Shown: in pieces, positions 13,944 through 14,267 of the stretch
How positions within the stretch are numbered: the stretch's first letter is position 1
How the letters are laid out: each line of letters opens with the position of its first letter
From: a virus
Lineage: Duplodnaviria; Heunggongvirae; Uroviricota; Caudoviricetes
Reading direction: 5' to 3' (one strand)
Virus record (IMG/VR): IMGVR_UViG_3300022594_000256
Coordinates: 3,368 to 67,367 of that record
Length of the DNA: 64,000 nucleotides
The notes under the pieces: generated by a model
Told to the model about the DNA's origin: nothing
The model's input: only the letters and a program-made list of their open reading frames with translations
Database searches by the model: none
Program-made: the position numbers and the translations under genes

Positions 13944-14267
13944 TTATACTCCGAAACTGCTACCGCAGCCGCATGTTGCTTTTGCATTTGGGTTGTTAAT
14001 AGTGAAACTACTACCCATTAATTCTTCTTTATAATCTATTGTTGCGCCGTCCAAATATTGCATACTCATAGCATCTATAAGTATTTTCCATGCGCCGCAC
14101 TCTAACTCAAAGTCGTCTTCGTTCTTTTCGCTATCGAATGTAAATCCATAGCTAAATCCAGCACATCCGCCACCTTGAACAAAGGTGCGCAAACTTAGGT
14201 TGGGATTATTTTCTTCTGATAGTAAATCTTGTATTTTTACTTTTGCTGATGGTGAAATTGTAATCAC
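13944..14267 (-). CDS. iscA: IscA/HesB-family iron-sulfur cluster insertion (A-type carrier) protein
   Basis: 107 aa; hallmark [14 protein letters not shown] and C-terminal CGCGSSF (three conserved Cys of A-type carriers); GTG start preceded by GAGGG SD; only 5 nt upstream of the giant fibre gene. Confidence 0.85.

Follow-up and report, generated by a model that had tools for sequence, protein, structure and literature searches.

Among the auxiliary genes that viruses carry in ocean viromes are genes for the assembly of iron-sulfur (Fe-S) clusters, such as sufA and iscU, and Nishimura et al. (2017, mSphere) found an A-type carrier in 14 complete viral genomes from the environment (PMC5332604). 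The T4-like, 183-kb genome TARA_ERS488813_N000010 combines such a carrier with 12 radical-SAM genes, as well as with cas4, grx and paaD, and the authors proposed that viral assembly proteins may serve both the host and many virally encoded proteins (PMC5332604). Phages of the HMO-2011 type also carry erpA and iscU (PMC9038755), and in a viral-fraction metatranscriptome from Lake Baikal, transcripts of the HesB/IscA/SufA family were among the commonest in one functional category (PMC9611531). The link between a phage carrier and many radical-SAM enzymes has thus already been proposed (PMC5332604), and is not a new idea. The phage erpA gene analyzed here belongs to this described class of phage Fe-S auxiliary genes, and it is the operon arrangement that is new. 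What we add is the ErpA subtype of the carrier; an account of how large and old the phage clade is and how it is selected; the architecture of promoter, leader cistron and embedded Shine-Dalgarno (SD) sequence; and the variety of genomic contexts.

The gene lies on the minus strand (13944..14267; 107 codons, GTG start, TAA stop) of a 64,000-nt stretch of DNA that was analyzed as a whole, further called the window. The original prediction had described its product as an A-type carrier of the IscA/HesB kind, based on a three-cysteine signature. This signature is present in the form of C35 (in GGGC) and C99-G-C101 (in TCGCGSSF), which together make up the ligand triad of A-type carriers and are invariant in 120/120 database homologs, and likewise in 39 aligned homologs; a fourth cysteine of the window protein, C57, is not conserved among its relatives. 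The Pfam model PF01521, which had been suggested as a check, matched residues 2-102 of the 107 with 74.5 bits (gathering score 26.3), so that the assignment as an A-type carrier stands, by this family as well as by the fold. The IscA/HesB part does not: the NCBIfam equivalog model for ErpA (NF010147) scored 151 bits (cut-off 117), whereas the models for IscA (TIGR02011, 82.6 bits, cut-off 150.6), SufA (TIGR01997, 80.9 bits, cut-off 136.2) and NfuA all remained below their cut-offs, and the protein is therefore ErpA-type. By sequence, the closest solved structure is HI1723 of H. influenzae, an ErpA ortholog (phmmer, 127.7 bits). An AlphaFold2 model of the phage protein (pLDDT 74, low only in the 2 cysteine loops) was matched by Foldseek to the A-type carriers HI1723, SufA, IscA and Aq_1857 in the PDB (best TM 0.69-0.76), with the IscA-like DsrR and the integrative model 9a4q_B (E = 4.8e-4) as other significant matches. 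In PHROGs, the protein falls in phrog_17776 (139 bits), a family annotated as "unknown function". Sequence and model together support that the 107-aa ORF encodes an ErpA-type A-type carrier, for which cluster binding and transfer are predicted.

That the carrier is encoded by a phage, as originally predicted, is borne out by its flanks, which are tail-fiber and baseplate-connector genes (i.e., a phage context), and by at least 240 relatives in IMG/VR. A large protein database contained thousands of matches, with the best 120 at 75-100% identity, and the same synteny of erpA and giant fiber recurs on a 275-kb contig (JACCDY010144220.1) from this database. For comparison with cellular genomes, one representative genome was used for each of 185,579 bacterial and archaeal species, and the best matches, from Cohnella and Porticoccaceae, were ~60-61% identical. 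We rejected recent capture from a host, considering that the best cellular match is at ~60%, whereas the best 80 of the at least 240 viral relatives are at 74-89%. A nucleotide search of deposited and cultured phages with the erpA region returned no match. Protein matches in phage collections were mostly bacterial-like contigs, or else 2 huge uncultured phages, in one of which the carrier is found among genes for Hsp70, YqeY and saccharopine dehydrogenase, away from any fiber gene. In neighbor-joining (NJ) trees, the viral ErpAs separate from the cellular ones, and are nearest to gammaproteobacterial sequences, with members of the Porticoccaceae, Ectothiorhodospiraceae and Granulosicoccaceae as sisters to the viral clade; considering that these trees are unbootstrapped and the protein is only 107 aa long, this placement is indicative only. 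Among 43 distinct viral coding sequences, the median dN/dS was 0.09, and synonymous sites were near saturation (median pS 0.70). Together with the invariant cysteines, this dN/dS value argues that erpA is a functional, selected coding sequence. The possibility that the ORF is not expressed, which the original prediction had named as speaking against it, is answered by this strong purifying selection as far as sequence analysis can do so. Judged from these alignments, viral ErpA is a large, old and phage-maintained lineage, distinct from cellular ErpA.

The original prediction had also placed erpA as the first cistron of a transcript that continues into a giant fiber gene. The start codon is indeed preceded by a good SD, GAGGG (14274..14278, minus; read from the sequence, 6 nt before the GTG), which is kept in ~40 distinct related loci, and the position of the start codon is the same among relatives, with ATG in about two thirds and GTG in about one third of them. 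At 18 nt before the start lies CTAAATA (14286..14292, minus), a motif that resembles T4 late promoters; most relatives have GATAAATA at this position and others GCTAAATA, and the motif is kept in ~40 distinct loci. Across ~58 nt, erpA is paired with a divergent gene for a 95-aa zinc-ribbon protein with 4 cysteines (14328..14615, plus). Over ~40 distinct loci this intergenic region is almost invariant, with the consensus GTATTTACATTAAGRTTATAAAA-N5-TTG(A/C)TAAATA-N7-GAGGG-N6-ATG/GTG, and its conservation is far above that of synonymous sites in the flanking genes. The divergent gene itself occurs in 68/84 related loci, and its product has a conserved zinc-ribbon pattern (CDCC...H-x-C-x2-C); a GTAAATA sequence lies only ~5 nt ahead of its ATG, so that its late transcript may be nearly leaderless.

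T4 late promoters have the consensus TATAAATA, or NATAAATA in distant T4-likes, and do not require a -35 element. The erpA motif differs from the canonical TATAAATA, and this canonical form was rejected as the late promoter of the window, where its 3 exact sites are below chance expectation. The informative signal is the relaxed TAAATA core at a fixed geometry. Of the 43 TAAATA sites in the window, 5 are placed 18-21 nt ahead of a start codon and separated from it by an SD, where 0.38 were expected (P = 4e-5); the genes behind them are erpA, those for a 487-aa fiber-like protein and a 791-aa fiber, and 2 ORFs without an assigned function. Furthermore, in the 60 nt ahead of window genes, ATAAATA is the 7-mer with the strongest enrichment (22-fold). 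The geometry at erpA is that of T4 late promoters, and by this measure the motif is promoter-like. Of the window ORFs that were scanned, none had a Pfam or PHROG match suggestive of a late sigma factor or co-activator (gp55/gp33), and a scan for sigma-70 promoters around erpA found no more matches than in shuffled sequence.

On its upstream side, the unit is bounded by a strong bidirectional intrinsic terminator with an 11-bp stem (14889..14913, both strands), which follows UvdE and separates the unit of erpA and fiber from the upstream UvdE block; on the same strand, the upstream genes encode UvdE, QueD, 2 structural-like proteins and a B12-binding radical-SAM enzyme. Only 2 small plus-strand genes lie between terminator and erpA, so that on the minus strand a new unit opens with erpA, in agreement with the first-cistron position. 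At this junction, the erpA stop codon is followed by the 5 nt AGAAA and then by the ATG at 13938 of the 3432-aa fiber ORF (13938..3640), exactly as originally predicted, and the gap measures 2-6 nt in the 31 distinct related junctions. An SD for the fiber gene, GGAG (13949..13952, minus), sits inside the last Gly-Val codons of erpA. The final codons follow the pattern TTY-GGA-GTN-TAA, which keeps GGAG at 9-11 nt before the fiber ATG, and the terminal Gly codon is GGA in 29/31 of the distinct junctions. As this embedded GGAG is conserved, the end of erpA doubles as the ribosome-binding site of the fiber gene. No TAAATA-type motif is found between the 2 genes, and the gap leaves no room for a terminator or promoter. 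Considering the terminator, the divergent gene, the 2-6 nt gaps with GGAG and the conserved TAAATA, co-transcription of erpA and the fiber gene is the best reading of this architecture and is well supported by it; transcription would start from a putative late-type promoter and probably take place late in infection.

The second cistron encodes the giant tail fiber (3640..13938, minus; 3432 aa), which matched PHROGs 5342, 4527 and 701, the first 2 of these being tail-fiber families. It carries a gp9/gp10-like N-terminal attachment motif, and its first ~40 residues resemble the gp9/gp10-like N-termini of the T4-like cyanophages P-RSM1 and S-SSM7. The fiber stop codon overlaps the start of a 293-aa gene, which also has a gp9/10-like N-terminus (2759..3640, minus) and is probably the third cistron of the unit. 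The 791-aa fiber, a collagen-repeat tail fiber (353..2728, minus), is preceded at 21 nt by a TAAATA motif of its own. At the other end of the giant fiber, the C-terminal ~130 residues match phrog_22593, and a C-terminal motif ending in GTVLVFGG is also found in a 737-aa fiber of a divergent phage (L213), indicating by sequence that this C-terminal module is common to shafts of very different length. A weak match to the Pfam family 'Phycobilisome' at residues 1620-1699 (26.7 bits) is probably spurious.

Metal binding is known from other phage tail proteins: gp37 of T4 binds iron through HxH motifs, and gpL of lambda binds a [4Fe-4S] cluster. The giant fiber has a single HxH motif in its 3432 aa, and His makes up 0.6% of its residues. 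Its 23 cysteines are spread along the sequence without a motif of 3-4 cysteines, and good conservation is limited to C1106 (98%) and C713 (88%), which are ~400 residues apart. We therefore rejected both a role of the carrier as an iron chaperone for a gp37-like fiber tip, because of the single HxH and low His content, and a gpL-like Fe-S cluster in the fiber, since there is no conserved cluster of cysteines.

The original prediction was right in counting 14 radical-SAM enzymes: exactly 14 ORFs in the window contain CX3CX2C, and 14/14 match PF04055 (Radical_SAM). These candidate clients of the carrier are encoded on the minus strand at 20118..22136 (with a B12-binding domain), 23140..24249, 24249..25538, 45934..46833, 46826..48079, 55809..56873 and 56866..57900, and on the plus strand at 40953..41918, 41906..42928, 43442..44920, 44917..45954, 49617..51164, 51157..52245 and 53420..54514. 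The twitch-domain family NF033640 was matched by 10/14 of the proteins (best E = 8e-122), SPASM domains were found in 4/14 and B12-binding domains in 2/14. Membership of the twitch-domain and SPASM groups implies that these enzymes need auxiliary clusters besides the catalytic one. In most related loci with enough flanking sequence, radical-SAM genes are located 6-10 kb upstream of erpA. Within the window, the radical-SAM genes (20118-25538 and 40953-57900) are interleaved with ORFs without a Pfam match, and near them are genes for an Asp/Asn beta-hydroxylase (61257-61904) and a TauD-family pair (61901-62755 and 62752-63618). In all, the 2OG/Fe(II) oxygenases of the window comprise 3 TauD-family proteins, a 2OG-FeII_Oxy_5 protein and the Asp/Asn beta-hydroxylase. 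The pathway formed by the radical-SAM enzymes could be one of protein or peptide modification, or of small-molecule modification. With QueC and QueD present, QueE was considered as a defined radical-SAM client, and rejected, being absent among the families listed (all 19 families of the first member and, out of 64 families, the 25 that most members match). Genes for IscU, cysteine desulfurase, ferredoxin or glutaredoxin were not found in the window.

Several other genes and elements of the window were noted in passing. A gene for IF-1 is located at 39679-39897 (minus; 68.5 bits) and one for an ATP-dependent DNA ligase at 28097-29419, and the ORFs scanned between 25514 and 40791 include ClpP, a pair of Band7/SPFH and NfeD proteins, QueC, a MazG-like PRA-PH protein and a metallophosphoesterase. 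At 40813-40926 (minus) lies a tRNA-like element of ~114 nt, with an acceptor stem GUAGACG/CGUCUAC followed by ACCA and a canonical T-arm, GUAGGUUCGAAUCCUAC. ARAGORN called no tRNA in the window, including this element, and no Rfam family reached its gathering score anywhere in the window. The minimum-free-energy fold of the element is not a clean cloverleaf, and the element may be a degenerate tRNA or one with an insert.

A second scan of IMG/VR, with a gammaproteobacterial ErpA as query, brought up more divergent members of the viral clade, and with them a range of genomic contexts. On ~11 viral contigs, some of them small, ErpA is followed by IscU (NifU_N, 181 bits), which lends independent support, at the level of gene order, to a generic role in Fe-S biogenesis. 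The contigs with this pair include L177 (6190-6570), L178, L180, L185, L190, L192, L193, L195, L201 and L202; their ErpAs are 70-73% identical to that of the window, and the order of ErpA and then IscU differs from that of the bacterial isc operon. Elsewhere, ErpA is followed by a second A-type carrier or by a DNA ligase, or belongs to a module of the replication type, together with genes for DnaJ, peptide deformylase, a ClpB-like protein, 5'-nucleotidase and a T4-like DNA polymerase B; no ORF with CX3CX2C was found in the 10 kb to each side of the ErpA in this module. In yet another group, IF-1 and ErpA are followed, after a gap of 43-55 nt, by a gp10-N-type fiber of 265-290, 439, 737 or at least 1982 aa. 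This gap holds a TAAATA motif and an SD, and with a TAAATA of its own the fiber is probably a separate late transcript there, with ErpA ending the preceding unit. Three members with a 43-nt gap (L176, L187 and L198) have a terminator-like hairpin, AAACCCG-CTAAATAAGTAAAA-CGGGTTT, directly before the gene of the 265-290 aa fiber type, with a late-promoter-like motif in its loop; this hairpin may combine terminator and promoter. The IMG/VR contigs L217-L234 have an ErpA-like gene that is ~62-65% identical over 79 aa, beside DsrA-like and DsrC/TusE-like ORFs, as called by eye (DsrA N-terminal ...TPMLDELENGPWPSF). These are probably known dsr-carrying phages of sulfur oxidizers, or else cellular contamination.

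Arrangements of this kind, more divergent than the window's lineage and with ErpA next to a fiber gene, number at least 4; they differ in their upstream genes and occur in separate parts of the viral ErpA tree. The backbone order w40073, w27255, w25726, IF-1, ErpA, fiber is collinear with the window, in which radical-SAM genes, p399, p487, QueD and UvdE are insertions upstream of erpA relative to this backbone. On gene order, inherited synteny at a module boundary would be the simplest account of the fiber adjacency, and the late promoter upstream of erpA in the lineage of the window would have fused erpA into the fiber unit. Given that sister ErpAs are found away from fibers, or next to a fiber with its own promoter, the position in front of the giant fiber is a feature of this lineage and gives no hint of a fiber-related function. 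Likewise, the contexts with IscU, with the replication module and with a separate fiber promoter indicate that the function is generic Fe-S delivery rather than a fiber-specific one.

Based on these data, we favor, as a probable though by no means settled reading, a functional ErpA carrier, encoded by the leader cistron of a late unit, that boosts Fe-S delivery to the Fe-S enzymes of the phage. The original prediction had made the same suggestion for the radical-SAM enzymes; it is supported as correct, but was already published. The transcription unit would run from the TAAATA motif through the SD, erpA, the 5-nt gap and the giant fiber to the 293-aa gene, with the end of erpA supplying the ribosome-binding site of the fiber. 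Through C35, C99 and C101, the dimeric phage ErpA would hold a [2Fe-2S] or [4Fe-4S] cluster supplied by a scaffold of the host (IscU or SufBCD), and would pass it on to apo-proteins. Its most likely role would be to enlarge the capacity of the infected cell for terminal Fe-S delivery, such that the Fe-S enzymes of the phage, with 14 radical-SAM proteins among them, could mature at a time when host synthesis is shut down.

The same carrier biochemistry could also be directed at the host. Host Fe-S proteins are plausible clients of ErpA, and it is conceivable, if rather unlikely in our estimate, that they are the main ones and that the adjoining radical-SAM genes are coincidental, with the carrier sustaining respiration, isoprenoid synthesis (IspG/IspH) or further [4Fe-4S] enzymes that the cell cannot do without, be it at a late stage of infection or during iron or oxidative stress. 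It is well established that ErpA of E. coli is essential for aerobic respiration and for the maturation of IspG/H, as reported by Loiseau in 2007. The viral ErpAs of replication-module phages have no CX3CX2C ORF within 10 kb, so that the carrier has no obligatory link to radical-SAM genes; the ErpA-IscU pairs on small viral contigs also fit host clients, as does the view of Nishimura et al. that the clients may be of host as well as of viral origin (PMC5332604). What tips the balance towards phage clients is the set of 14 radical-SAM genes in the window, the occurrence of such genes 6-10 kb upstream in most loci of the fiber lineage with enough flank, and the late-type promoter, which suits phage-encoded clients better than maintenance of the host.

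The position of erpA invites a second question, i.e., whether the carrier serves the biogenesis of the fiber, either as a donor of Fe or Fe-S to the fiber itself, or as a partner of enzymes that modify it. The adjacency of ErpA to a gp10-N-type fiber in 31 distinct junctions and at least 4 divergent arrangements could be read in this way, as could the iron in T4 gp37 and the [4Fe-4S] cluster in lambda gpL, and the radical-SAM/SPASM, B12-radical-SAM, Asp/Asn beta-hydroxylase and TauD-type families all include protein or peptide modifiers. The fiber itself, however, with one HxH, 0.6% His and 23 scattered cysteines without a 3-4 cysteine motif, does not look like a recipient; the divergent arrangements have TAAATA in their 43-55 nt gap and are probably separate transcripts; the IscU, DNA ligase and replication-module contexts lack any fiber; and the collinear backbone suggests inherited synteny. 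We therefore regard a role in fiber biogenesis as improbable. The evidence also mostly argues against a more elaborate link between carrier, radical-SAM enzymes and fiber maturation, in which the radical-SAM/SPASM/2OG-oxygenase set would modify the giant fiber or other virion proteins, and ErpA would be made together with the substrate in order to mature the enzymes; to this version, too, we give little credence. Finally, module boundaries are common insertion sites of phage accessory genes, and the contexts of erpA vary between lineages, as would be expected of a passenger captured between promoter and fiber gene without any contribution to fitness. A passenger would hardly have kept a dN/dS of ~0.09 at saturated synonymous sites with invariant ligand cysteines, be retained in at least 240 viral loci, and have a conserved start position, SD and upstream motif. 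This makes the passenger reading highly improbable, and the selection analysis, to the extent that coding sequences can decide the matter, effectively refutes it.

These data add a well-documented example to the known class of phage genes for Fe-S supply. The viral ErpAs are a large lineage maintained by phages under strong purifying selection and distinct from cellular ErpA; the operon architecture leads to the testable prediction of a boost in Fe-S delivery at a late stage of infection; and the radical-SAM enzymes of the phage provide defined candidate clients with which to study how A-type carriers choose their targets.

Compared to known systems, the phage protein is closest to cellular ErpA (YadR), e.g. 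HI1723 (PDB 2APN) and E. coli ErpA. It is of similar length (107 vs 114 aa), has the same C-X63-C-G-C ligand triad and is 53% identical to HI1723 by Foldseek, and its gene, like cellular erpA, stands alone outside an isc/suf operon. Unlike cellular ErpA, it is phage-encoded, belongs to a viral clade that is at most ~61% identical to representative cellular genomes, and lacks the N-terminal extension of 7-8 residues, and its gene leads a fiber operon behind a T4-late-like promoter motif. IscA and SufA (ATC-II; PDB 1R94, 1S98, 2D2A and 1X0G) share the fold and the cysteine triad, but at 31-34% identity and with equivalog scores far below the cut-offs, and unlike the genes of the isc/suf operons, phage erpA is not beside iscU or sufBCD in the window. 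DsrR (PDB 2K4Z), an IscA-like protein without Fe-S function, has a similar fold (Foldseek E = 4e-4), whereas the phage protein keeps all 3 ligand cysteines invariant. Among viral genomes, TARA_ERS488813_N000010 (PMC5332604), compared here by its published description, is T4-like, as is the window, and each has one A-type carrier, with 12 radical-SAM genes in the former and 14 in the latter. Of the other genes of that genome, cas4, grx and paaD were not found in the window, whereas ClpP, which is named as Fe-S-related in the same study (PMC5332604), is present. The published work contains no mention of a pre-fiber placement, a late promoter or an embedded SD, and its functional proposal for the carrier is the same as ours (PMC5332604).
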